From Nanopusillaceae archaeon (GTDB taxonomy: Archaea; Nanobdellota; Nanobdellia; Nanobdellales; Nanobdellaceae): a stretch of DNA of 23,874 nt. Each line of letters starts with the position of its first letter. Position 1 is the stretch's first letter. The translations under genes and the position numbers were made by a program. The notes below the pieces were generated by a model. That model was not told the DNA's origin. It worked only from the letters and a program-made list of their open reading frames with translations, and searched no databases. Below, piece by piece: positions 4,440 to 23,874 of the stretch. The DNA lies in NCBI GenBank assembly GCA_049973735.1, contig JBMFJL010000004.1, positions 1 through 23,874 on the forward strand, in the 5' to 3' direction.

Positions 4440-5093
4440 TTATTTCTTTTTACCAGCAGATTCGTACAGATCATATACTGCCTCACCCGGTGCCAATATA
4501 ATATATTTGTATTTTTTCTTTGGTTTTTTAGGTTGAGGTGGTTTAGTTACCCAGGCTACAACTGCTATTAGCAATCCTATTACTATAATAAGTGGTAGTA
4601 AACCAGTATTAATCAAGAAATCTAATATTGTCAATAATGCGCCAGCAGCAGTTTGTCCAAATTCATCAAATGAAACTGAAGAGGCATACATAAATGCAAA
4701 TAAAACTAATAAACCTAAAATTCCCGTAATTGCATTATTTGCATATCCTTTGTATCTATTGAATGCTTCATCTTTTGGATCATAAGGTCTTGATACCAGT
4801 GATAGTAGTCCTATTACCATTAATATAAAAAATAATACTAGGAATTCAAAGAAGAAGAATGATATAAAGTTTTCTGTAAATATTACAGCTTGTAAATTAT
4901 ATATATAATAAGCGGCTAGAGCAAATGATACTACAGCATATAGTTTTTCTCTTGCAGGATTATCTCTACCAAAGATTCCGGTTTTTCTTAGTAATCCATA
5001 CATTAATGAAAATATTAATAAAAATGGGGCTATAATCGAAAATACACCATATTCAGAAAATGCAGCATATAGGAAAGATGTTATATCCATCAT
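4440..5093 (-). CDS. Multi-pass membrane protein, paralogue 3 of a tandem triplet (unknown family)
   Basis: 217 aa. N-terminal motif EYGVFSIIAPFLLIFSLMYGLL. C-terminal TM ending VVAWVTKPPQPKKP, then a lysine-rich tail. The start overlaps the stop of the upstream paralogue. Confidence 0.75.
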   Translation of the reverse strand: MMDITSFLYAAFSEYGVFSIIAPFLLIFSLMYGLLRKTGIFGRDNPAREKLYAVVSFALAAYYIYNLQAVIFTENFISFFFFEFLVLFFILMVIGLLSLVSRPYDPKDEAFNRYKGYANNAITGILGLLVLFAFMYASSVSFDEFGQTAAGALLTILDFLINTGLLPLIIVIGLLIAVVAWVTKPPQPKKPKKKYKYIILAPGEAVYDLYESAGKKK

Positions 5094-5632
5094 CTAGATC
5101 TTGAGTGATCTCCACCGCTTTGGCCAGGAGATGTTACCCAATATACTATTAAGAATAGTAGCAAGAATATTATTAACAGTGTTAATAAGCCAGATTGGAT
5201 TAGAAAATCTATAATATATCCAAATAATCCTACGAATCCAAAGTTAACATTTGCTTCATTCATTGCATTTACTGCTAGCCAAATCATTATTCCTACAACA
5301 ATCAATCCAAGTATTGCCCTTGCAGGTCCTGGTACATGTCTTCCAAATGCTGCTATAATTACTGCTAATAGGAAAAAGGCTAAAACTGCAAAAGAAGCAT
5401 TTGGAATAAATTTCAATAACCATATGACTAAATTGATGTTTGCCATAGATAGTAAGGCAAAAGAAAATGAAAATAGTATACTTAATTTCCTTCCAACAGG
5501 ATCATTTGGGGAAACTTTCAATAATCCTGAAAGTTCTAATATCATATAAACTAAAGAAAATATTAACAAAAATGGTAATATAAAGTCGAAAAATCCGTAT
5601 TGGCTTAATAATGTTCTTATATCTAATGCCAT
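5090..5632 (-). CDS. Multi-pass membrane protein, paralogue 2 of a tandem triplet (unknown family)
   Basis: 180 aa. QYGFFDFILPFLLIFSLVYMIL at the N-terminus and LIVYWVTSPGQ at the C-terminus. Ends in RSR-stop like paralogue 1. Confidence 0.75.
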   Translation of the reverse strand: MALDIRTLLSQYGFFDFILPFLLIFSLVYMILELSGLLKVSPNDPVGRKLSILFSFSFALLSMANINLVIWLLKFIPNASFAVLAFFLLAVIIAAFGRHVPGPARAILGLIVVGIMIWLAVNAMNEANVNFGFVGLFGYIIDFLIQSGLLTLLIIFLLLFLIVYWVTSPGQSGGDHSRSR

Positions 5633-7501: not shown

Positions 7502-8329
7502 GTGGAGGAAAGATTTGTAAGAGTGACAGATATAACAGATTATTTATTTTGTCCTAGAAAGGTTTATCTTAAAAGAGTTTTGGGTTATGAGGAAGAAACA
7601 AATGAAAAAAAGATATTTGGATCGATAGTACATAACATTTTGGATAATTTAAATGAGAGGGAATATGAAATTGTCTATAATATAAAGGAAAATAGAGGAT
7701 ACGAATATGTAAAAAAATTATATGAAGATTTTGTTTTAGAATTAATTGATAAATCTATAAAAAAATTTGAGAAAGATATAAAAAAACTAAATATAGATGT
7801 GGAAAAAATTAAATTTCAAGTATTTTCTTATATATATAAAGAAATAGAAGATAGATCGAAAAATATATTTAATTTCATGAGCGAAAATGATTTATATGGT
7901 ATAGAGTTATGGTATTCTTTGGAACCAAAGATTTTGACAGAATTCGATACAATATCTAGAAAGTATAATATAATTGGTAGAGTTGATAGAATAGAAAAAT
8001 ATAATAAAAGAAAAGAAATTATTCCATATGAAATAAAATCGGGATTTTTCAGTAGAGATCATATAACTCAAATATATACCTATTATTTATTGTTGAAAGA
8101 TGAGTTCCCAGATTATAAAATATACAAAGGATATATCTATTATGTTAAAGATAATAAAAAATTTGAAATAGAATTTACAAATAAAAACGAGATAAAAAGA
8201 ATTTTGGAAATAAAGGATAAAATATTAGATATGATTGAAAGTGAGAAAGATCCGGGAAAAGTATATAAAGAAAAATGCCAAAAATGTGTATTTTACAATG
8301 TTTGTTGGAAAAATGGAAATAAAAATTGA
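7502..8329 (+). CDS. Cas4-family / RecB-like PD-(D/E)xK exonuclease with a 4-Cys Fe-S motif (stand-alone, GTG start)
   Basis: N-terminal ITDYLFCPRKVYLKRVLG. Nuclease core GRVDRIEKY...IIPYEIKSG. QIYTYYLLL (QxxxY). C-terminal CQKCVFYNVCW (Cx2Cx5C). This is the classic Cas4/DUF83 layout. Confidence 0.82.
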   Translation: MEERFVRVTDITDYLFCPRKVYLKRVLGYEEETNEKKIFGSIVHNILDNLNEREYEIVYNIKENRGYEYVKKLYEDFVLELIDKSIKKFEKDIKKLNIDVEKIKFQVFSYIYKEIEDRSKNIFNFMSENDLYGIELWYSLEPKILTEFDTISRKYNIIGRVDRIEKYNKRKEIIPYEIKSGFFSRDHITQIYTYYLLLKDEFPDYKIYKGYIYYVKDNKKFEIEFTNKNEIKRILEIKDKILDMIESEKDPGKVYKEKCQKCVFYNVCWKNGNKN

Positions 8330-9107
8330 CATAACTAAAAGTATATACGAGAATATTAACGATATTTATGAAAAAATTAAAGAATTAAAAAGAAAAAAGG
8401 AAAAAATAGAAGAAGTAATTAAAGAATTGGAAAATAAATTGAATAATATTGAAGAAAATATAAAAATTGAAAAGAAAAAAGAAGAAAAAAAGAGAAATAA
8501 AAAATGGTATGAAAAGTTCAGATGGATGATAACTTCTAATAATTTTCTTTTGATTGCTGGTAGGGACAGCAAGCAGAATGAACTATTAATAAATAAATAT
8601 TTAGAGGAAAACGATTTAGTATTTCATGCAGATATAGTCGGATCTCCGTTTGGTATATTAAAAAATGGGAAAAATGCAAAAGAGCAAGATATATATGAAG
8701 CAGCGAAATTCGTTGGATCATATTCTAGAGCATGGAAAATCAAATTATCCTCAGTAGACGTATATTATGTATATCCTGAACAAGTGTCTAAAACTGCACC
8801 ATCTGGCATGTATATTAAAAAAGGGTCATTTATGATATATGGAAAGAGGAATTATATAAAAGTAAAGCTTGAAATTGCATTGGGATTTGAAGAATATACT
8901 GTAATTCCTGGTATACCGGAGAATATAGTCAACAGGTATAAAAGTTATGTTATACTAGTCCCTGGAAATAAAAAACCATTGGAAATTGCCAAAGAATTAA
9001 GTAAAGTTTTTAAAGTTGATGTAGAAGATATAATAAGATATCTTCCTGGTGACAGTGATATATACTTATTGCAGGATGGTAACATTTATAAAGATTACCG
9101 TCAATGA
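8313..9107 (+). CDS. NFACT-R (DUF814) protein, equal to the C-terminal half of the archaeal NEMF/Rqc2 ribosome-quality-control homologue (coiled coil + NFACT-R only)
   Basis: KWYEKFRWMITSNNFLLIAGRDSKQNELLINKYLEENDLVFHADIVGSPFGILK, AAKFVGSYSRAWKIKLSSVDVYYVYPEQVSKTAPSGMYIKKGSFMIYGKRNYIKV. The ORF is open from 8235. ATG 8313 (MEIKIDITK...) cuts the overlap with the upstream gene from 95 to 17 nt. Confidence 0.8.
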   Translation: MEIKIDITKSIYENINDIYEKIKELKRKKEKIEEVIKELENKLNNIEENIKIEKKKEEKKRNKKWYEKFRWMITSNNFLLIAGRDSKQNELLINKYLEENDLVFHADIVGSPFGILKNGKNAKEQDIYEAAKFVGSYSRAWKIKLSSVDVYYVYPEQVSKTAPSGMYIKKGSFMIYGKRNYIKVKLEIALGFEEYTVIPGIPENIVNRYKSYVILVPGNKKPLEIAKELSKVFKVDVEDIIRYLPGDSDIYLLQDGNIYKDYRQ

Positions 9108-11095
9108 TTATTATTATGAACCAATCAGGCAAACTATTTAAAAGGTTAGTATTTTTGTTACCGTTATTAGTAGTAGCAGCAACAGGAGTACATGCAGAGA
9201 AAATAATAATAGAGCCAATGACAGCAAATCTATTAGCAAACTATATAGATAATGGATTAACATTTACAGTAAAGTTGTTCGATGTAAATGGCACACCAAT
9301 AGAGTCAGATTTGTACTTTAATATATATGATCAGAATGGACAATTAATTTATCAGTACTATAGATCAATTGATGTATCATGCTGCATTGTACAACCAAAT
9401 AAATCAGGAGGTGCACCATGTGTATATCAAATACCAGTAAATCCACAAGTTTTACAACAATTATTACAGACACAAAGAACAGAATGTGGCAATAATTATT
9501 ACTGTTCTACATCTACACCATCAAATTCATTTAGAGTAGAAGCAAAAGTAGCATTAGTATACAAAGGAGGAAATGTAACTACTGTAACTAATTCTTCAGT
9601 TTATAACTTAGTATATGTACCATACAATTTATCATTACAAATGATACAATTACCACCAACAATTTCAAAACAATACTTATTACAATATGGATTGAACTTA
9701 CAATCAATAGTATATCTACAGAATTCTGAAACAAGAATACAGAAATCAACATTGATGGTAACATTGTATGATTCAACAGGTAAGATATTATATCAAACAC
9801 AACAAGATGTAAGATTGACTCCAGGAGAAAACTTATTAACAGTTCCAGTATCTGGAGGATATTTTGCAGATGTATCTGGAAAGGTATTTGTAGAAGAGCA
9901 ATTAACAATAGTATTAGTCAATGGAAAGGTATTGACAGATAAAAAGACAGGATACTTCTATGTATCTGATAATCAATTTGGAGGAGCATTAGAATTAATG
10001 TCAATATCACCAGATTTCACAAAAATGACAAACTTAGAACCAAATAAATTCTATACAGTACAATTATTATTCAATAATCCATCGAGAGTATCATTAACAG
10101 CAGCAGTTCAATTGTTAGTATATGATCAATATGGAAACATAGTAGTAAATCAAAAGTCCTCAAATACAATAGGATCAAACCAACAAGGATCCGTATTTGT
10201 ACCATTCAGTACATATGGTTTAAAACCAGGATACTACCTATTAAAATTATACATATACCAGAATGATGCATTAGTAGATCAAAGAGAATATACAGTAACA
10301 GTAAATGCAGATTCTATAAATGCAGTAAGAGTATTAAGAGTAGATTTGAATACATTTGATGTAAAGCCAGGATCATTCATAAAATTATATGTATACTTAA
10401 AGAGCAACTTACCAATGGATGTACAAGTAACACCAACAGTAATGTCAAAAGAATTAAACCTATATCAGCAATTATCTACAATAACATTATCTCCAAACTA
10501 TGAAACACAATTGCCAGTAGTAATATATATACCAGCAGGATTGAAAGCAGGATATTATCCAGTTAAATTAGTATTTGACTACAATGGAGTAAGACAAGAA
10601 TACACATATGAATTATATGTAAATGGAACAGTACCAGTTTATTATCCAGTAAAGGCAGCATTAATTGGACCATCTGTAGTAGGAACAAATACAACATTTG
10701 ACATAGTAATAGTATCAAATTCAACACAAATATATACAGTAGATGTTTATCTAGATGTTGATGGTGGATATGCAATGCCAAGCCAAGCAAGAGTACAAAT
10801 AGGAGGATATTACTCTGAAAAAATACCAGTAAATATAACAGCAACAAGCTCAAATGTAACAGTAAAGGTTAGAGTAGTAAATGCAGATACAGGAGAAGAG
10901 TTGTATACATTTACACAATCATTACAAGGACAACCAGCACAAAGGATAACAACACAACAAGCAACACCAGATTTGTTCAGAGGAATAACATTCTGGATAC
11001 TAGTAGTAATAGCATTAGTAATAATAGGATTAATAATATATGAATCAAGAAGAAGAAAAGGAAAAGAAAAGAAAGGTAAAGAAGTAGAAGAATAA
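9104..11095 (+). CDS. Secreted, C-terminally membrane-anchored surface (S-layer-like) glycoprotein candidate with repeated beta-sandwich-like modules
   Basis: Signal peptide LFKRLVFLLPLLVVAATGVHA/EK. C-terminal TM ITFWILVVIALVIIGLIIY followed by RRRKGKEKKGKEVEE. Many N-x-S/T sequons. Recurring motif hhhh-[YF]-D-x-x-G-x-hh-Y (VKLFDVNGT, YFNIYDQNGQLIYQ, MVTLYDSTGKILYQ, QLLVYDQYGNIVV, VRVVNADTGEELY). Codon choice (cca/gta/aca/gca/caa) resembles the EF-2 gene. Confidence 0.7.
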   Translation: MIIIMNQSGKLFKRLVFLLPLLVVAATGVHAEKIIIEPMTANLLANYIDNGLTFTVKLFDVNGTPIESDLYFNIYDQNGQLIYQYYRSIDVSCCIVQPNKSGGAPCVYQIPVNPQVLQQLLQTQRTECGNNYYCSTSTPSNSFRVEAKVALVYKGGNVTTVTNSSVYNLVYVPYNLSLQMIQLPPTISKQYLLQYGLNLQSIVYLQNSETRIQKSTLMVTLYDSTGKILYQTQQDVRLTPGENLLTVPVSGGYFADVSGKVFVEEQLTIVLVNGKVLTDKKTGYFYVSDNQFGGALELMSISPDFTKMTNLEPNKFYTVQLLFNNPSRVSLTAAVQLLVYDQYGNIVVNQKSSNTIGSNQQGSVFVPFSTYGLKPGYYLLKLYIYQNDALVDQREYTVTVNADSINAVRVLRVDLNTFDVKPGSFIKLYVYLKSNLPMDVQVTPTVMSKELNLYQQLSTITLSPNYETQLPVVIYIPAGLKAGYYPVKLVFDYNGVRQEYTYELYVNGTVPVYYPVKAALIGPSVVGTNTTFDIVIVSNSTQIYTVDVYLDVDGGYAMPSQARVQIGGYYSEKIPVNITATSSNVTVKVRVVNADTGEELYTFTQSLQGQPAQRITTQQATPDLFRGITFWILVVIALVIIGLIIYESRRRKGKEKKGKEVEE

Positions 11096-11098
11096 GGT

Positions 11099-11119
11099 CT
11101 TTATTTTTTATCTGTTTTT
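11099..11119 (+). terminator. Oligo-T archaeal terminator after the surface-protein gene
   Basis: ctttattttttatctgttttt lies immediately after the TAA at 11093-11095. T-runs of this kind are the usual archaeal termination signal. Confidence 0.45.
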
Positions 11120-11161
11120 AAAATTTCATCATTTTTCAGCCTGGGACGGTTTCTTCATGAT

Positions 11162-11217
11162 TGTACCCCTGCCAACTCTACCTTTTCATTAGATCGAAGG
11201 TAACCCTCGGCAGGGGC
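11162..11217 (-). ncRNA. Candidate single-hairpin archaeal H/ACA box guide sRNA
   Basis: Minus-strand RNA: GCCCCUGCC-GAGGGU-UACCUU-CGAUCUAAUGAA-AAGGUA-GAGUU-GGCAGGGGU-ACA. That is a 9-bp GC-rich lower stem, an internal loop (6+5 nt pocket), a 6-bp upper stem, and an apical loop with tandem G.A/A.G (K-loop-like, GAUCUAAUGA). ACA follows the lower stem directly, 14 nt from the upper stem. It is the only GC-rich island in a 182-nt AT-rich spacer between convergent genes. Confidence 0.6.
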
Positions 11218-11277
11218 ATTATTTTAAATTATATTAAAATTTAATATTACTTATTTATTTAAAACTTTTTATTTTGA

Positions 11278-11958
11278 TTACTCTAAATGAGCCTTTTTAA
11301 TTATATACTCAGCATAATTTTTTTCTACTCTAATTTCATATTCATCAATAACAATTTCTTTTTTAAATAATGGTTGATATAATACGAATGTTTCATATTC
11401 TCCACCTTCTCCAACCAAGTTTATTTTGTATTTTTTATTATAGTCTATTAGTTTGTTCAGAATGTTTTTATCAAAAATCTTCCCAAGGATACTAATATCT
11501 AAAGGATAAGCATACCAGCCGGTTATTATAAATTTAAAATTATTTCTTAATAATTCATTTAAGTATTCTATTTCATCCTTTAACCATAGAGGATTAAAAC
11601 ACGATAAGTTTAGCTTTTTACATATTTTTTGGAATCTTGTTGCTTGATATTCTGATCTTATTGCTCCGGTAACTACTCCTTCAATTTTATATTCTTCTTT
11701 CAAATATTCTAATGCATTTTCAAGCGTTTTTTCTTCATCAAGATCGCTATGAAATATTTCTATTGGAATTTCTAGGGCTTCTGCCTGTAATCTAGTATAT
11801 TCATGGTTTATATAATGATATAAATAACTCTCACTATTTTTAGGTACAATATTTAATAAAACTTTAATTTTATGAGATTTTGACGCTATATATAAAGAAT
11901 AATTTGAGTCTTTTCCACCAGAATATAAAACTGCTAAGTTCATCCTAAAATTATCCAA
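11278..11958 (-). CDS. dph6: Diphthine-ammonia ligase (Dph6 / MJ0570-type PP-loop ATPase). The likely true start is ATG 11943, an ATGA overlap with the upstream stop.
   Basis: MNLAVLYSGGKDS (PP-loop SGGKDS), VVTGAIRSEYQ, LWLKDE, VGEGGEYETFVL. These are characteristic motifs of the diphthamide synthetase family. Confidence 0.85.
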   Translation of the reverse strand: MDNFRMNLAVLYSGGKDSNYSLYIASKSHKIKVLLNIVPKNSESYLYHYINHEYTRLQAEALEIPIEIFHSDLDEEKTLENALEYLKEEYKIEGVVTGAIRSEYQATRFQKICKKLNLSCFNPLWLKDEIEYLNELLRNNFKFIITGWYAYPLDISILGKIFDKNILNKLIDYNKKYKINLVGEGGEYETFVLYQPLFKKEIVIDEYEIRVEKNYAEYIIKKAHLE

Positions 11959-12566
11959 TTGGTTCTATAATTTATCATCTGACGGATCAAATTATCTAGA
12001 TAATCATCTGATAGTCTTGTTACATTAATTTCACATTCTCCAATACAATATAGATTATTATTATAACTTATTATATAAGTCTCTCCAATAGATAGATTTA
12101 CTATAAAGTTATTAAAATCAAAATATTGTTTAACAATTAGGATAGGATATGAAATATTTATGTAGTATGTTTTATTATAACAAAATGGATTACAAGGATA
12201 GCAAATATTTTCATTACAGTTCATTGTGCATGCTATAGGTATACATGTTTCAACCGTTTCATTAATTACAATATTTTCATTACATATAATTACATCTGAA
12301 GTATTTAGGTAATCTATAAAAATTAATGCATCATTGAAGTTTATTGCAATATCTACAGGATGAATTATAAAATAGCTGTTGCTCGAATTTAATTTATAAC
12401 ATCCATATTTATAAAAAATAATTCTTTGTGCAGATATATTTTGATCATTTATGCTCAAAACAACATTTTCTGTATAATAGTCACCTACTTTAGATAAATT
12501 TGAAAGTAAAAATAAAATAACTAATGATAATATCGCATATATGATCAATTTAAGATTTTTTATCAT
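11940..12566 (-). CDS. Hypothetical secreted or signal-anchored Cys/Asn/Tyr-rich protein
   Basis: 208 aa. N-terminal hydrophobic anchor LKLIIYAILSLVILFLLS. A 12+ Cys ectodomain (CIPIACTMNCNENICYPCNPFCYNKTYY, LYCIGECEIN) with many N-x-S/T sequons. No family recognised. Confidence 0.55.
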   Translation of the reverse strand: MIKNLKLIIYAILSLVILFLLSNLSKVGDYYTENVVLSINDQNISAQRIIFYKYGCYKLNSSNSYFIIHPVDIAINFNDALIFIDYLNTSDVIICNENIVINETVETCIPIACTMNCNENICYPCNPFCYNKTYYINISYPILIVKQYFDFNNFIVNLSIGETYIISYNNNLYCIGECEINVTRLSDDYLDNLIRQMINYRTNWIILG

Positions 12567-14944: not shown

Positions 14945-14986
14945 TTTTAAAAAAATTTTTATACCACATTAAAAATTTTTAATTTT

Positions 14987-15205
14987 CTAATATTTATTTT
15001 GATATTTTACTAAGTCTAAGAATCTTCTTTTGTTTAATTCATACATATATATTATTGCAGATACTGCTAAGTTTAATATACCATATTTATCATTTGTTGG
15101 TATAGTAGATATTAAGTCACAAAGTTTTAATTCTTCATATGTTAATCCATTACCCTCTCTTCCAAATACTAGATAAACAAAATAAAAGTAAATAATATGG
15201 AGAAA
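14987..15205 (-). pseudogene. C-terminal remnant of a SpoU/TrmH-type (SPOUT) RNA 2'-O-methyltransferase, with no start codon and an in-frame TAG upstream
   Basis: Minus-frame translation: FLHIIYFYFVYLVFGREGNGLTYEELKLCDLISTIPTNDKYGILNLAVSAIIYMYELNKRRFLDLVKYQNKY-stop. LVFGRE..GL and IP......LNLAV...I..YE are SpoU motifs 2 and 3. The frame is closed by TAG at 15206-15208. There is no ATG/GTG/TTG before the motifs. Only about 115 nt separate it from the next gene. Confidence 0.6.
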
Positions 15206-15322
15206 CTAATTGGTAAAATGGATTATAGGATTGAATATTTTTATAAAGATGAAAAAGACCTTAAAAGAATGATAAATAAGTTGGAAGAAATATATGTAAA
15301 GGATATTCAAATATTGAAATAG

Positions 15323-17736: not shown

Positions 17737-17976
17737 TTATTTGTTTATGAATGTTATGTTACCTATTCCATAGTAATATACATAAGCGAAAACTATATTT
17801 GATTGATTGTATAAAGTTATATATTTATGAATAAGGTTGTTTATATTTTCTTTTGTTGTACTAATACCAGATGACATATTATTTAAAATATTATAATAAA
17901 ATACAAGTGAAGAAAATATAAAAAATGATATTAGAGAAATAAATAATACTTGTTCTAATAATATTTGTCCTCTCAT
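17737..17976 (-). CDS. Small type IV pilin-like protein (class III signal peptide)
   Basis: MRG/QILLEQVLFISLISFFIFSSLVFYY: a short basic leader, Gly at -1, Glu at +5, then a hydrophobic helix. 79 aa. The start overlaps the stop of the upstream ORF by 4 nt. Confidence 0.65.
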   Translation of the reverse strand: MRGQILLEQVLFISLISFFIFSSLVFYYNILNNMSSGISTTKENINNLIHKYITLYNQSNIVFAYVYYYGIGNITFINK

Positions 17977-18494
17977 GAGTATATATATGAATAAAAGGCT
18001 GTGCCATTCTTGATTAACCTTATATTACAATTTCCTACACACATTCCTGTACAATTATTTGTTAATATTATAATTGATAGATAACTTTCATAGCATCCAT
18101 AGAGTATAGAATTATATCTATTTTCTAATAAATAATAACCATTGAATTTTGGGTCATAAAAATAATAACTTCCATAATATTCTATCAAATCTCCCTGATA
18201 AGTAAAATTGTTTAAAGTTGTTTGACAAAGATTATCAGATTGTATAACAGTAAAATTATTTACACAAAATATATTGTAGTTTTCTAGGTTATATTGTATA
18301 TTAAAATATAAGCTATTTTCTAAATTATATAATTCTTGAGCTATAAAGTTTGCCTGATATTCAAAGTTTCCTCTATTTAAAAAATTTATTGCATATATTT
18401 TGTTATTTTCCCACCAGGAATAAACTAAATAAAAAGATATTGCAGATAACAGTATTAGAAGAATATATTCGATATATATGTGTATAGACCTCAT
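17973..18494 (-). CDS. Hypothetical pilin-like or secreted Cys/Asn/Tyr-rich protein
   Basis: 173 aa. MRS-IHIYIEYILLILLSAISFYLVY N-terminus (possible degenerate class III signal). Asn/Tyr/Cys-rich ectodomain with sequons (NFT, NCT, NGT). Translationally coupled to the pilin gene. Confidence 0.5.
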   Translation of the reverse strand: MRSIHIYIEYILLILLSAISFYLVYSWWENNKIYAINFLNRGNFEYQANFIAQELYNLENSLYFNIQYNLENYNIFCVNNFTVIQSDNLCQTTLNNFTYQGDLIEYYGSYYFYDPKFNGYYLLENRYNSILYGCYESYLSIIILTNNCTGMCVGNCNIRLIKNGTAFYSYIYS

Positions 18495-19878: not shown

Positions 19879-21816
19879 ATGAATTCTATTGAAGATCTAA
19901 TAAAGGTATTTAAGGAAAAAGGATTCTTTTACGAGTCTCAGGAGATATATGGAAGTAGATCTGGTTTTTATGATTATGGATCAATAGGTACATTGCTAAA
20001 GAGAAAATTCGAAAATTTGTGGAGATTATATTTCGGAAAACTCTTTGATAATATATATGAAATACAACCTTCAGATATTATGAATAAGAATGTTTTTGTT
20101 GCATCAAGACACTTAGAATTATTTAATGACCCTATAGTAGAATGTAAAAATGGTCATAGATTTAGAGCAGACAAATTGATTGAAGAGGAATTAAAGATCA
20201 AAGCAGAGACTTTAAAGATTGAGGATATGAATAGAATATTTGAAGAAGGAAAAGTATTATGTCCTATATGTAAATCAAAACTATCTAATGTTAGGTTATT
20301 TAATTTAATGTTTCCAATATTTGTAGGACCAGAATCTGACTTATTTTTATATTTAGAAGATATTAGGAAAAGATATAATCTATATAAGGAACTAATTAGT
20401 AAGAAATTTAGAAGAATAAATGAAAAAAACGCTTCCTATATCTATAAAAAATATTTAATAAATAAAAATCTATATGCAATTGAAAATGAAGGTAAATTAT
20501 ATATTTTCGATGAAAATAAAGAAATAATAATAAGATATGATGAATTATCCAGAGAATATTACTATTATTCTGATAAAAATATTGATATTGGGGAAGAAGA
20601 AATAATTTATTTAGAAGAGTTATTCAATAAAATAAAATATATAGAATTATTTAGAGAAAAAGATTTAGAAAAAATAATAGAAAAGTATAATGATTTGTTG
20701 AATAATCAAATGTTTTTAAGACCAGAAACCGCACAAGGACCTTATGTCAACTTTCCTGAAGAGATAATAATAAATAGGTATAGATTGCCTTTAGGATTAT
20801 ATGTTATTGGGAAAGCATATAGAAATGAAATATCTCCAAGAAATGCTTTATTAAGAATGAGGGAATTTACCCAGGCAGAATTACAGATATTCTTCGATTA
20901 TTATAATAATAGGTTTAATGATGAGTTTGAAAAGGTAAAGGATAAAAAAATAAATGTTTTATTAGTTAAGGATAGAGATAAAGGAAGAGATTTCTTTGAA
21001 AAAAGTTTAAATGAAATATACATAGAAACTAGGATAGATAAATTCTATTTATACTTTTTGTATAAAGTATTTTTATTTTATACAGAAATATTAAAGGTAG
21101 ATAAAAATAAAATAAGATTTTATCAATTATCTGATGAAGAAAAATCTTTTTATAACATGTATCACTTTGATTTAGAAATAAATATAAAAAATATAGGATG
21201 GACAGAGGTTGGGGGAATACACTTCAGAGTATTGAAATTCAGAAAAGATATAATAGAAAGGGTTCCGGATGAATTAAAAGAAGATGTAAAGAAATTATTT
21301 GATAAAGATGAGATATTTGTTGGATATGATTTATGGAATCATTTCATCTTATCAAAGGATAGAAGATTTATATTAACAAGACCGGATGGAACAAAGTTCA
21401 TTCCAGTTGAGTTGGAACTATCTTTTGGAGTAGATAGAAATATATTTATGCTACTAGTAAATAATTATGAAAATATATTAAAATTGCCAGAATATTTGGC
21501 ACCAATACAAATTGCAGTATTTCCATTACTAGAAAATAATAATGATCATGTGAGAATTGCAAAAGAAATATATGAAAAGTTGAGGAAAAGATTTGATGTA
21601 TATTATGATGATTCTGGAAGGATTGGAATAAGATACAGAAGGCAGGATGAGATTGGAACACCATATTGTATTACTGTTGATAATCAAACTTTGAATGATA
21701 ATACAGTTACAGTAAGATTTAGAGATACAAAAGAGCAAATTAGAATAAGTATAAATGATTTGGAAAGATTTTTTGAGGAAAAATTTAACTATTGGAAAGT
21801 AGTAGATATAATATGA
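19879..21816 (+). CDS. glyS: Glycyl-tRNA synthetase (archaeal/eukaryal alpha2 type) carrying a ~125-aa insertion
   Basis: FYESQEIYGSRSGFYDYGSIG, NLMFPIFVGP, FLRPETAQGPY, GKAYRNEISPRNALLRMREFTQAELQIF (motif 2), LSFGVDRNIFMLL (motif 3), anticodon-binding FPLLENN...YDDSGRIGIRYRRQDEIGTPYCITVD. Confidence 0.93.
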   Translation: MNSIEDLIKVFKEKGFFYESQEIYGSRSGFYDYGSIGTLLKRKFENLWRLYFGKLFDNIYEIQPSDIMNKNVFVASRHLELFNDPIVECKNGHRFRADKLIEEELKIKAETLKIEDMNRIFEEGKVLCPICKSKLSNVRLFNLMFPIFVGPESDLFLYLEDIRKRYNLYKELISKKFRRINEKNASYIYKKYLINKNLYAIENEGKLYIFDENKEIIIRYDELSREYYYYSDKNIDIGEEEIIYLEELFNKIKYIELFREKDLEKIIEKYNDLLNNQMFLRPETAQGPYVNFPEEIIINRYRLPLGLYVIGKAYRNEISPRNALLRMREFTQAELQIFFDYYNNRFNDEFEKVKDKKINVLLVKDRDKGRDFFEKSLNEIYIETRIDKFYLYFLYKVFLFYTEILKVDKNKIRFYQLSDEEKSFYNMYHFDLEINIKNIGWTEVGGIHFRVLKFRKDIIERVPDELKEDVKKLFDKDEIFVGYDLWNHFILSKDRRFILTRPDGTKFIPVELELSFGVDRNIFMLLVNNYENILKLPEYLAPIQIAVFPLLENNNDHVRIAKEIYEKLRKRFDVYYDDSGRIGIRYRRQDEIGTPYCITVDNQTLNDNTVTVRFRDTKEQIRISINDLERFFEEKFNYWKVVDII

Positions 21817-21846: not shown

Positions 21847-23451
21847 ATGAAAAAGATTGCATTTATATCTCAGGAATTTTCCATAGAAAAGTTACCAACG
21901 TATGCGGGTGGATTGGGAATACTGGCAGGAGACCTTTTATATTCATCAAATGATCTAAAATATCCTATATACGGGATAACTTTTGTAAATAAAAATGGTT
22001 ATGGTTATTATGAGATAAAGGGAAAGGAAATAATATATAATGAGGAAAGTTATGATCCTATAGAGTATTTTTTAGAAGTAGAAGATACCTTTTATATAGA
22101 TTTAAAAGGAAAAAAAATATACTTTAAAGTTTGGAGATATAATTTACCATATTCTAATTTATTTTTATTTGATACAGATATGCCAAAGAATGATCCACAA
22201 ATTAGAAAATTAACTGGTAGATTGTATTATGAAGAAAGTCAGGAAGAGAGATTGTTGAAGGATTTATTATTGGGTCTAGGTGCGTTGGAATTCTTCGATA
22301 AAATTGGTATAGAAATAAATAAATATCATCTAAATGAGTCGCATGGAGGATTTCTGGCAATAGAATTATACAAAAGATATAAAAATATAGAAGAAGTTAG
22401 GAAAAGAATAATATTTACGACACATTCAATAATTGCTGGTCACGATTCATTTGATTATAATTTAGTAGAAAAATATTATGACATACCAAATGAAATAAAG
22501 TATTTATCTCCAGAAAAATTAAATTTAACAAAAATATTATTGAATTTGGCTGGATTTAAAAATGCAGTATCTTATAAACATAAAGTAATAACTGAGAAAG
22601 TATTTGGTGTAGAATTAGAATATATAACTAATGGTGTAAATCACATAAGATGGACAGATAGAAAGATAAAGATGTTATATGATACATATTTACCTGGTTG
22701 GAGAGATGAACCTTCAAAGTTATCTTATGCGCAAATAATAGATAGATCCCAATTCATTAAAATAAAAAATATGTTAAGGAAGGAATTAATAGATTATATA
22801 AATGTAAATGCATATTTAAATAAAGAATTTGAAGAAGATAGAATAATATTAACTGTTAAAAGAAGATTAGCAGAATATAAAAGATTTCATATGTTATTGT
22901 GGAGATTAGAAAGATTGGAAGAATTAAATAGAAAATATAGAATACAGTTCATATTATCTGGATCTTTCCATCCAAAAGATGAATTTACAAAAAATACAAT
23001 AAAATGGATCGTAGATATAATGTCAACTTTGAATTTACCAGTTGGATTGTTATTAAGGAGAGGATATGAACAGGAAAAAATAATATTATCTGGAACTGAT
23101 TTGTTTTTACACATTCCAAGACCACCATTTGAGGCATCTGGTACTTCATGGATGAGGGCAGGAATTAATGGAACTCCTACATTATTTTCAAGAGATGGTT
23201 CTCCACTAGAAATAATAATTGATGATTATAATGGATGGTTTTTTGGAGAAAATAATTATGATATAAATAGAAATACTGATGAAGAAGATGTAAAAGACTT
23301 CTATAATAAATTAGATTATATATTGAATCTTTACAGAAACAATTATAACAAATATATAGATATATCTATAAATGCTATAAAGACAATTGGACCTTTGTTT
23401 AATTCTCATAGGTGTTTGCTAGAATATATACATAGGGCATATGAGAAATGA
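21847..23451 (+). CDS. glgP: Short alpha-glucan (glycogen/maltodextrin) phosphorylase homologue, GT35, with substituted PLP-site lysines
   Basis: IAFISQEFSIEKLPTYAGGLGILAGDLL, HLNESHGGFLAIE, IFTTHSIIAGHDSF, ITNGVNHIRWT, KRRLAEYKR, PRPPFEASGTSWMRAGINGT. This matches the TIGR02094-type phosphorylase pattern, but with EASGTS-W-M-R where the family has M-K. Confidence 0.8.
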   Translation: MKKIAFISQEFSIEKLPTYAGGLGILAGDLLYSSNDLKYPIYGITFVNKNGYGYYEIKGKEIIYNEESYDPIEYFLEVEDTFYIDLKGKKIYFKVWRYNLPYSNLFLFDTDMPKNDPQIRKLTGRLYYEESQEERLLKDLLLGLGALEFFDKIGIEINKYHLNESHGGFLAIELYKRYKNIEEVRKRIIFTTHSIIAGHDSFDYNLVEKYYDIPNEIKYLSPEKLNLTKILLNLAGFKNAVSYKHKVITEKVFGVELEYITNGVNHIRWTDRKIKMLYDTYLPGWRDEPSKLSYAQIIDRSQFIKIKNMLRKELIDYINVNAYLNKEFEEDRIILTVKRRLAEYKRFHMLLWRLERLEELNRKYRIQFILSGSFHPKDEFTKNTIKWIVDIMSTLNLPVGLLLRRGYEQEKIILSGTDLFLHIPRPPFEASGTSWMRAGINGTPTLFSRDGSPLEIIIDDYNGWFFGENNYDINRNTDEEDVKDFYNKLDYILNLYRNNYNKYIDISINAIKTIGPLFNSHRCLLEYIHRAYEK

Positions 23452-23571: not shown

Positions 23572-23874
23572 TTATTTTCCAAAGAAAGACAGAATATTTT
23601 TCTGAGTACCTTGTTTATATGCTTTTTTCAATTCTTCAATCGCTTTATTAACTCTTTCTTCTGAAAAATCATGTTCATCAATTAATATTTTCCTTATTTT
23701 TTCTTCATCAATTTCTCCAAACTTTATATCTTCTTTATTTACTTCAATTACTGGTGGATCTAAGAAAAATTCTTCCAATTCTTTCCATGAAATATCTTTA
23801 TAATATTTTTCCCATCCAACATATTTAAATAATCTTTCAGGATCGTTATTATTTTTTACCAATTCATATGCAGT
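23572..23874 (-). CDS. fen: Flap endonuclease 1 (FEN-1), C-terminal part. The 5' end lies outside the window.
   Basis: The frame is open to the window edge (TAYELVKNNNDPERLFKYVGW...). IDEHDFSEERVNKAIEELKKA matches the FEN-1 C-terminal region. It ends in a PCNA-interacting PIP box, QKNILSFFGK. Confidence 0.8.
   Translation of the reverse strand, partial: TAYELVKNNNDPERLFKYVGWEKYYKDISWKELEEFFLDPPVIEVNKEDIKFGEIDEEKIRKILIDEHDFSEERVNKAIEELKKAYKQGTQKNILSFFGK

Follow-up and report, generated by a model that had tools for sequence, protein, structure and literature searches.

Can a glycogen phosphorylase homologue that has lost the lysine anchoring its cofactor still break down glucan? The question is raised by a gene in a 23,874-nt stretch of DNA from a Nanopusillaceae archaeon (assembly GCA_049973735.1, contig JBMFJL010000004.1, positions 1 to 23,874 of the forward strand), which is referred to as the window. 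An intact open reading frame (ORF) at 21847–23451 on the + strand encodes a 534-aa homologue of the glycosyltransferase family 35 (GT35) alpha-glucan phosphorylases, enzymes in which a lysine carries pyridoxal 5'-phosphate (PLP) as a Schiff base. Glycogen phosphorylase (GP) is the textbook case of an enzyme that uses PLP through its phosphate group and not through its aldehyde. A conserved and expressed clade without the anchoring lysine, with its substrate site intact, allows one to ask directly whether the chemistry cannot do without the cofactor or whether PLP is a historical solution. With a confidence just short of even, the protein is proposed here to be a glucan phosphorylase that has stayed catalytic without covalent PLP.

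The family assignment was made by hidden Markov model searches, alignment, AlphaFold2 modelling and Foldseek. The protein matches TIGR02094.1 (NCBIfam 'alpha-glucan family phosphorylase') over its whole length with 290 bits, above the curated cut-off of 191.7, and Pfam PF00343 (Phosphorylase) with 50.5 bits against a cut-off of 27. The generic PF00534 (Glycos_transf_1) also passes (35.1 vs 26.4 bits, E = 1.2e-8), while PF08323 (Glyco_transf_5) stays below its cut-off (21.1 vs 22.7 bits), as do the GlgA-type TIGR02095 (26 vs 328 bits) and NF041129, the equivalog model of the Thermococcales maltodextrin phosphorylases (216.6 vs 1500 bits). The AlphaFold2 model, for which 36 sequences of the clade described below served as input, has a mean predicted local distance difference test (pLDDT) score of 93.4 and a predicted template modelling (pTM) score of 0.91. 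Its top Foldseek matches are two Segatella copri GP structures (9l6i and 20yr; E = 1e-37, TMq 0.88–0.91), followed by classical GPs, and the predicted fold is a GT-B fold of two Rossmann domains that can be superposed on solved phosphorylases. The HMM score and the structural matches bear out an earlier note on this DNA, which had recognized a TIGR02094-type GT35 homologue by eye. Its remark that 534 aa is at the small extreme of the family did not hold, since lysine-retaining relatives are 479–502 aa long. By sequence and fold the protein is a TIGR02094/GT35 member, but it fails the family's defining cofactor feature.

That feature is the PLP lysine. In a HMMER alignment to the S. copri enzyme (ScGP, PDB 9l6i), EASGTSWMR437 of the window protein falls on EASGTSGEK609, and the segment sgSfhp falls on sgKahp. 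An L-INS-i alignment that included E. coli MalP and GlgP, with sequences from MG1655, placed R437 on MalP K646 and S373 on MalP K574. According to the ScGP structure paper Lys609 carries PLP, and K646 is the PLP lysine of E. coli MalP; the rabbit equivalent is K680. As the earlier note had read them, the codons are AGG at 23155–23157 for R437 and TCT at 22963–22965 for S373. Two residues before the arginine, W435 (TGG, 23149–23151) stands in place of the invariant glycine of GTSG(M/Q/E)K. Profile and structure-based alignments alike place no other conserved lysine at the PLP position. The only lysines invariant in the clade are K345, the equivalent of rabbit K574, and K244, a position at which canonical enzymes have L, K or R, and no clade-specific invariant lysine is therefore available to take over the cofactor.

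The second substitution, serine for the lysine of the AGKAHP motif, is also genuine, but the phosphate-contacting role that had been ascribed to this lysine was not upheld, because the phosphate contacts named for ScGP lie in the RR..YKR segment. In the ScGP structure paper, H316, R507, R508 and K513 contact substrate and product, and a review names K534, K540 and K554 as the phosphate-contact lysines of MalP. ScGP R507, R508 and K513 map to R339, R340 and K345, all of which are kept in the window protein, and MalP K534 and K540 map to R339 and K345. The AGKAHP lysine gives way to T, V, S or A in clade members, and several relatives with K437 have I, R, L, M or Q at this position. Because it also varies in these lysine-retaining relatives, the S373 substitution is real but not diagnostic.

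The loss of the PLP lysine is a property of a whole clade. The 120 best homologues show a sharp break: P0001–P0037 (E <= 1e-139, 43–80% identity) all carry GTSWMR together with SG[STVA]xHP, whereas the later homologues in which the region is present (E >= 1e-95) all carry GTSG[MQE]K, nearly all of them with the AGKAHP lysine. W435 and R437, within an invariant GTSWMR, are found in all 36 full-length clade members and in none of 82 canonical relatives. Clade identities span 43–82%, and its members come from Nanobdellales, metagenome-assembled genomes (MAGs) labelled Aenigmatarchaeota, and Thermofilaceae. Those with names are Nanobdella aerobiophila (P0004), Nanoclepta minutus, Nanopusillaceae, 'Nanoarchaeota archaeon' and Thermofilaceae/Thermofilum. 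The matches listed from a scan of species representatives added three Nanopusillus MAGs, the Nanobdellota archaeon YN1 and two Aenigmatarchaeota-labelled MAGs; the Thermofilaceae members were not among these listed matches. The cultured YN1 is the window's closest relative among them, at 82% identity. Searched with a profile, a set of 1.84 billion representative proteins yielded 9038 relatives; in the best 150 of these, SWMR was confined to the full-length protein P0272 and the fragment P0408. No named Pyrobaculum protein was found among the 37 clade clusters; a characterized GlgP of Pyrobaculum arsenaticum exists. Clade proteins are named 'alpha-glucan family phosphorylase' or 'starch phosphorylase' in the databases, and the former annotation masks the absence of the lysine.

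At the nucleotide level, Arg437 is encoded by AGG, AGA, CGG and CGC across 15 independent loci from different assemblies, and this use of four different codons makes resequencing of the window unnecessary. The ratio of nonsynonymous to synonymous substitution rates (dN/dS) is 0.13–0.19 against the two closest orthologues; the gene is under purifying selection.

The residues that changed along with the lysine were identified by comparing the 36 clade members with the 82 canonical relatives. Position 405 (R405, codon AGA, 23059–23061; MalP Y614, rabbit Y648) is tyrosine in canonical enzymes and R or N in the clade. Position 410 (E410, GAA, 23074–23076; MalP A619, rabbit A653) is canonical A or S and invariant E in the clade. 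At position 422 (H422, CAC, 23110–23112), an asparagine invariant in canonical TIGR02094 proteins is an invariant histidine. Rabbit Y648 and A653 are residues that we take to line the pyridoxal ring, and together with K608, whose position is T, V, S or A in the clade, they are counted here among the cofactor-pocket residues. The canonical tryptophan pair at positions 452–453 is replaced by G or S followed by V, P, I or T, the alanine at 338 by R or K, the glutamine at 138 by K and the histidine at 307 by K. The basic residue at 338 is a clade-specific addition that directly precedes the phosphate-binding RR motif.

The substrate site is retained. The N-terminal-domain Gly-rich loop (Y19-A-G21-G22-L-G24, 21901–21918; MalP G114–G117), the substrate-binding histidine H193 (CAT, 22423–22425; ScGP H316, MalP H346), the phosphate-binding motif (K338-R339-R340-L-A-E-Y344-K345-R346, 22858–22884; rabbit K568, R569 and K574) and the glucosyl/phosphate loop (E429-A-S-G-T433, 23131–23145; rabbit E672–T676) are all present on the + strand of the ORF. 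Equivalents of 17 residues that contact glucosyl, glucan or phosphate were followed (G21, G22, L23, N163, E164, H166, H193, N262, R339, R340, Y344, K345, E429, A430, S/C431, G432 and T433), and 15 are invariant in the clade. Variation at the remaining two is conservative: L23 is leucine in 35/36 members, and position 431 holds S or C, in canonical enzymes as well as in the clade; the other four residues of the glucosyl/phosphate loop (E, A, G and T) are invariant in both groups. The invariant residues include all of the phosphate-site residues (R339, R340, K345, G21 and G22) and the glucosyl and glucan subsites, in which H193, N262, E429, A430, G432, T433, N163, E164 and H166 correspond to rabbit H377, N484, E672–T676 and N338/D339/H341. 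Only 70/534 columns are invariant in the clade overall. The alignment points to a remodelled cofactor pocket beside an untouched substrate site; the new residues are strongly constrained. Relaxed selection after a loss of function is unlikely because R437, E410, H422 and W435 are invariant.

Set beside known enzymes, the window protein is closest to the short TIGR02094 ('more_P_ylases') phosphorylases, represented by S. copri GP (9l6i) and the archaeal Thermococcus maltodextrin phosphorylases, with which it shares the fold, the Gly loop, the substrate-site histidine and asparagine, RR..YKR and EA(S/C)GT. Unlike these enzymes, the clade has no PLP lysine, reads GTSW for GTSG, has lost the AGKAHP lysine and the tryptophan pair, has R/N for Tyr, Glu for Ala and His for Asn, and carries the extra basic residue before RR. 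The classical GT35 enzymes (rabbit muscle GP, E. coli MalP and GlgP) share the fold, and their conserved catalytic-site residues map one to one. However, identity to them is about 16%, and the window protein lacks the regulatory N-terminal insertions, the tower helix and the allosteric sites as well as the PLP lysine.

The origin of the clade was examined with neighbour-joining (NJ) trees only, in which its stem branch is long. The clade is monophyletic (bootstraps 50/50 and 39/40) and nested inside the short lysine-containing enzymes. The candidate view of the clade as an ancestral PLP-less link between nucleoside diphosphate (NDP)-sugar transferases and phosphorylases was rejected on account of this nesting. 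Its sister (35/40 NJ bootstraps) is a group of Altiarchaeota proteins from MAGs (P0308, P0333, P0345 and P0358) that are 479–502 aa long and read GTSWMK. They resemble the clade in having W435, in the loss of the tryptophan pair at 452–453 and in a variable AGKAHP lysine, but they retain the PLP lysine, the tyrosine at 405 and the alanine at 410, and are presumably still PLP enzymes. Since these proteins have the tryptophan and keep the lysine, W435 predates the lysine loss on these trees and is not by itself a stand-in for the cofactor. A role for W435 as a built-in substitute for the ring in the PLP pocket, which was also considered, is weakened by the presence of both lysine and tyrosine beside W435 in Altiarchaeota. 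The presence of W435 correlates with the absence of the tryptophan pair. Compared with Altiarchaeota, the changes particular to the lysine-less clade are K437R, Y405R/N, A410E, N422H and A338R/K.

Two further observations concern these relatives. Several of the Altiarchaeota GTSWMK proteins also replace a conserved histidine (the equivalent of window H166) and the AGKAHP lysine. Separate replacements of the PLP lysine were seen in four otherwise canonical short GT35 proteins (P0280; P0329, a cluster of n=6 from several sources; P0351; and P0370), with cysteine in its place in three (EASGTSGMC / STSGIC) and glycine in one. These cases suggest repeated loss of the lysine within the GT35 family.

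Evidence from expression and physiology comes from relatives of the window organism. For Nanopusillus acidilobi, the supplementary table of genes and proteome lists Nps_03060, 'Glucan phosphorylase', between Nps_03055 (5'-3' exonuclease) and Nps_03065 (glycyl-tRNA synthetase, GlyRS), and the protein was detected by liquid chromatography-tandem mass spectrometry. By synteny, Nps_03060 is the orthologue of the window gene: the order GlyRS, phosphorylase homologue, FEN1 is kept across Nanobdellales. SWMR is present in all three Nanopusillus loci read, which did not include the N. acidilobi sequence itself. A check for a canonical paralogue covered the N. acidilobi gene table, in which Nps_03060 is the sole 'phosphorylase' entry and GT35 homologue; the table also lists a cluster of debranching enzyme, glycosyltransferase and GH57.

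A similar linkage to glycogen genes was found at a clade locus on contig JBPNRH010000027.1 of GCA_054030715.1 (L085:8001-13628). There the phosphorylase homologue (+) is accompanied by GH57 (-), a 387-aa GT5/GT4 synthase-like gene (-) and a GDE_C debranching-type gene (+). The start called for this phosphorylase homologue is probably about 43 codons too early, as the tblastn match begins at 8130. Close homologues of the synthase-like protein (P0161, P0162 and P0163) were placed on contigs of the same lengths as those bearing the clade members P0016, P0020 and P0029. Because a synthase-like gene lies beside a clade member, a separate candidate for the synthase exists and the degradative role is left to the phosphorylase homologue. 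Published genome reconstructions count the gene as glycogen breakdown. YN1 has no gene for converting glucose into glucose-6-phosphate (G6P), and no cofactor or vitamin synthesis. Without the glucose to G6P step, only phosphorolysis would feed stored glucan into glycolysis in this organism. The retained substrate site, the constrained new residues, the expression of the orthologue, the linkage to glycogen genes and the gap in YN1 together suggest, short of proof, that the protein is active.

How could such an enzyme work? In the most specific form of the proposal, to which we give somewhat less than an even chance, the protein would be a naturally cofactor-independent GT35 glycogen or maltodextrin phosphorylase in which R437, E410, H422 or a second free anion replaces the PLP 5'-phosphate. 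It would catalyse reversible phosphorolysis, converting alpha-1,4-glucan and inorganic phosphate (Pi) to glucose-1-phosphate. Pi would be held by the retained R339, R340, K345 and Gly-loop site, and the glucosyl residue by H193, N262 and E429–T433. The substrate phosphate itself would then protonate the glycosidic oxygen in a front-side (SNi-like, nucleophilic substitution with internal return) step, as proposed for the GT4 trehalose phosphorylases, while R437, E410, H422, R/N405 and R/K338 may occupy or re-line the pocket left by the cofactor and modulate the phosphate. The GT4 enzymes have a GT-B fold and are not known to use PLP. Like the activity suggested here, those of Schizophyllum commune, Grifola frondosa and Pleurotus are of the retaining GT type and make alpha-glucose-1-phosphate. 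They differ in belonging to another CAZy family, in being fungal and in using a disaccharide acceptor and not a glucan; the sole sequence tie to the window protein is the weak Glycos_transf_1 match. An SNi-like front-side step with phosphate as the proton donor has been proposed for both families of retaining GT-type phosphorylases.

Several observations weigh against an active enzyme without covalent PLP. The GT35 apoenzyme is not known to be active. The filling of the pocket by R437, E410 and R405 is predicted from homologous positions and from the topology of the Rossmann fold, and the genes around the window locus are housekeeping genes only. According to accounts of characterized GT35 enzymes, the substrate phosphate depends on the PLP 5'-phosphate as its essential acid/base partner. 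The organisms are not free of PLP: N. acidilobi expresses the cysteine desulfurase SufS, and genes for PLP-dependent aminotransferases lie within a few kb of clade genes in two other lineages (L086:2190-3185 and 10342-11706; L008:3800-4678). Because PLP enzymes are present, there is no obvious selective reason for loss of the cofactor. A loss for want of PLP in these organisms was considered and is unsupported by the SufS and aminotransferase genes, yet the Nanobdellales are without vitamin synthesis.

The alternative that survives best, though it is unlikely, is a pseudoenzyme, in which the GT35 fold would bind alpha-glucan and perhaps phosphate without catalysis and would serve in glycogen binding, scaffolding or regulation. 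The earlier note had offered this as one outcome, and it keeps some weight. The cofactor lysine of all characterized GT35 enzymes is gone, the equivalents of rabbit Y648, A653 and K608 are changed as well, the stem branch is long (mean distance between the lysine-less and canonical groups 1.46, vs 0.94 within the canonical group) and published accounts treat PLP as necessary for GT35 catalysis. However, a binder would have no need of phosphate-site residues, and no variation was seen in R339, R340, K345, the Gly loop or the glucosyl-binding residues across 36 sequences at 43% identity. The new residues, R437, E410 and H422 among them, are likewise invariant and not drifting, and the low dN/dS and the proteomic detection of the orthologue point the same way. 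The loss of catalysis would also leave N. acidilobi, which has other glycogen genes, without activity from its only listed GT35 homologue, and YN1 without the route described above.

An active phosphorylase that holds PLP non-covalently is quite unlikely. Here the 5'-phosphate site would be occupied by PLP, or by some other ligand that bears a phosphate (free phosphate or phosphite, for example), and Arg437 would pair with it. The imine itself is not known to be catalytic: borohydride-reduced phosphorylase reportedly remains active, and the pyridoxal-reconstituted enzyme is activated by free phosphite. The equivalents of rabbit W491 (W269), T676 (T433) and K568/K574 are kept, extra basic residues at 338, 405 and 437 could hold a free anion, and the hosts contain PLP-dependent enzymes. 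The difficulty lies with the ring, as the replacement of the Y648-position tyrosine by Arg or Asn and of the A653-position alanine by an invariant Glu makes a hydrophobic pyridine pocket improbable.

Repurposing as a GT-B glycosyltransferase is doubtful. Such a protein would use a new donor (NDP-glucose or another sugar phosphate) or a new acceptor and would no longer be an alpha-1,4-glucan phosphorylase. In GT-B superpositions the GT35 cofactor pocket corresponds to the nucleotide site of GT5/GT4 enzymes, and several new charged residues are predicted to line this pocket. Clade members match Pfam Glycos_transf_1, with the E-value given above, and weakly Glyco_transf_5, whereas canonical relatives do not. 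Against this, the clade is nested in canonical PLP-type enzymes and so is derived, and all of the glucan- and glucosyl-subsite residues are unchanged. The aromatic platform, the equivalent of the adenine-stacking tyrosine of GlgA, has been lost and not gained, and a separate GT5/GT4 synthase-like gene adjoins a clade member or shares its genome.

A sequencing or assembly error, which the earlier note had raised for position 23156 because AGG is one transition from AAG, or a decaying pseudogene has a negligible chance, being ruled out by the four Arg codons over 15 loci, the 36 full-length clusters, the dN/dS values and the mass-spectrometric detection of the orthologue.

If the proposed cofactor-independent phosphorylase is real, it would be the first GT35 enzyme of its kind and a natural experiment on the contribution of PLP to phosphorylase catalysis. 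Neither a PLP-independent GT35 enzyme or alpha-glucan phosphorylase nor a lysine-less GT35 clade came up in a literature search. Reviews state that GT35 phosphorolysis requires PLP, and the characterized members they name are all alpha-1,4-glucan phosphorylases. Whether host-dependent nanoarchaea are able to draw on stored glucan also hinges on the phosphorylase homologue being functional.

The genes surrounding the phosphorylase homologue in the window encode exosome subunits, elongation factor 2 (EF-2), a diphthamide synthase, an archaellum ATPase and membrane protein, RNase J, GlyRS and FEN1. The upstream syntenic neighbour, GlyRS (19879–21816, +), is not functionally linked and serves as an orthologue marker. 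Downstream lies the C-terminal part of a FEN1/XPG flap endonuclease (23572–23862, -), whose gene runs past the end of the window. Gene contexts of the Thermofilaceae members and of the loci L087, L088, L008 and L009 were uninformative. The L008 locus further contains a fusion of chorismate mutase and prephenate dehydratase, an unusual gene in an Aenigmatarchaeota-labelled genome.

Elsewhere in the window, a 663-aa ORF at 9104–11095 (+) has a marginal Mannosidase_ig match and no other Pfam family, and five ORFs on the - strand have no Pfam match (767–1885, 4440–5093, 5090–5632, 11940–12566 and 17973–18494). A Cas4/PD-(D/E)XK nuclease-like ORF with a GTG start (7502–8329, +) overlaps an NFACT-R RNA-binding ORF with a TTG start (8235–9107, +) by about 95 bases, and the start codons of these two may be mis-assigned in the mechanical ORF list. 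What lies between EF-2 and the archaellum membrane gene varies. This interval is nearly empty in the window (14945–15322), holds a 908-aa ORF without Pfam matches in Nanobdella aerobiophila (L003:286-3012), and contains a SpoU methylase and a helix-turn-helix gene in a Joint Genome Institute (JGI) relative (L005:2040-3499).

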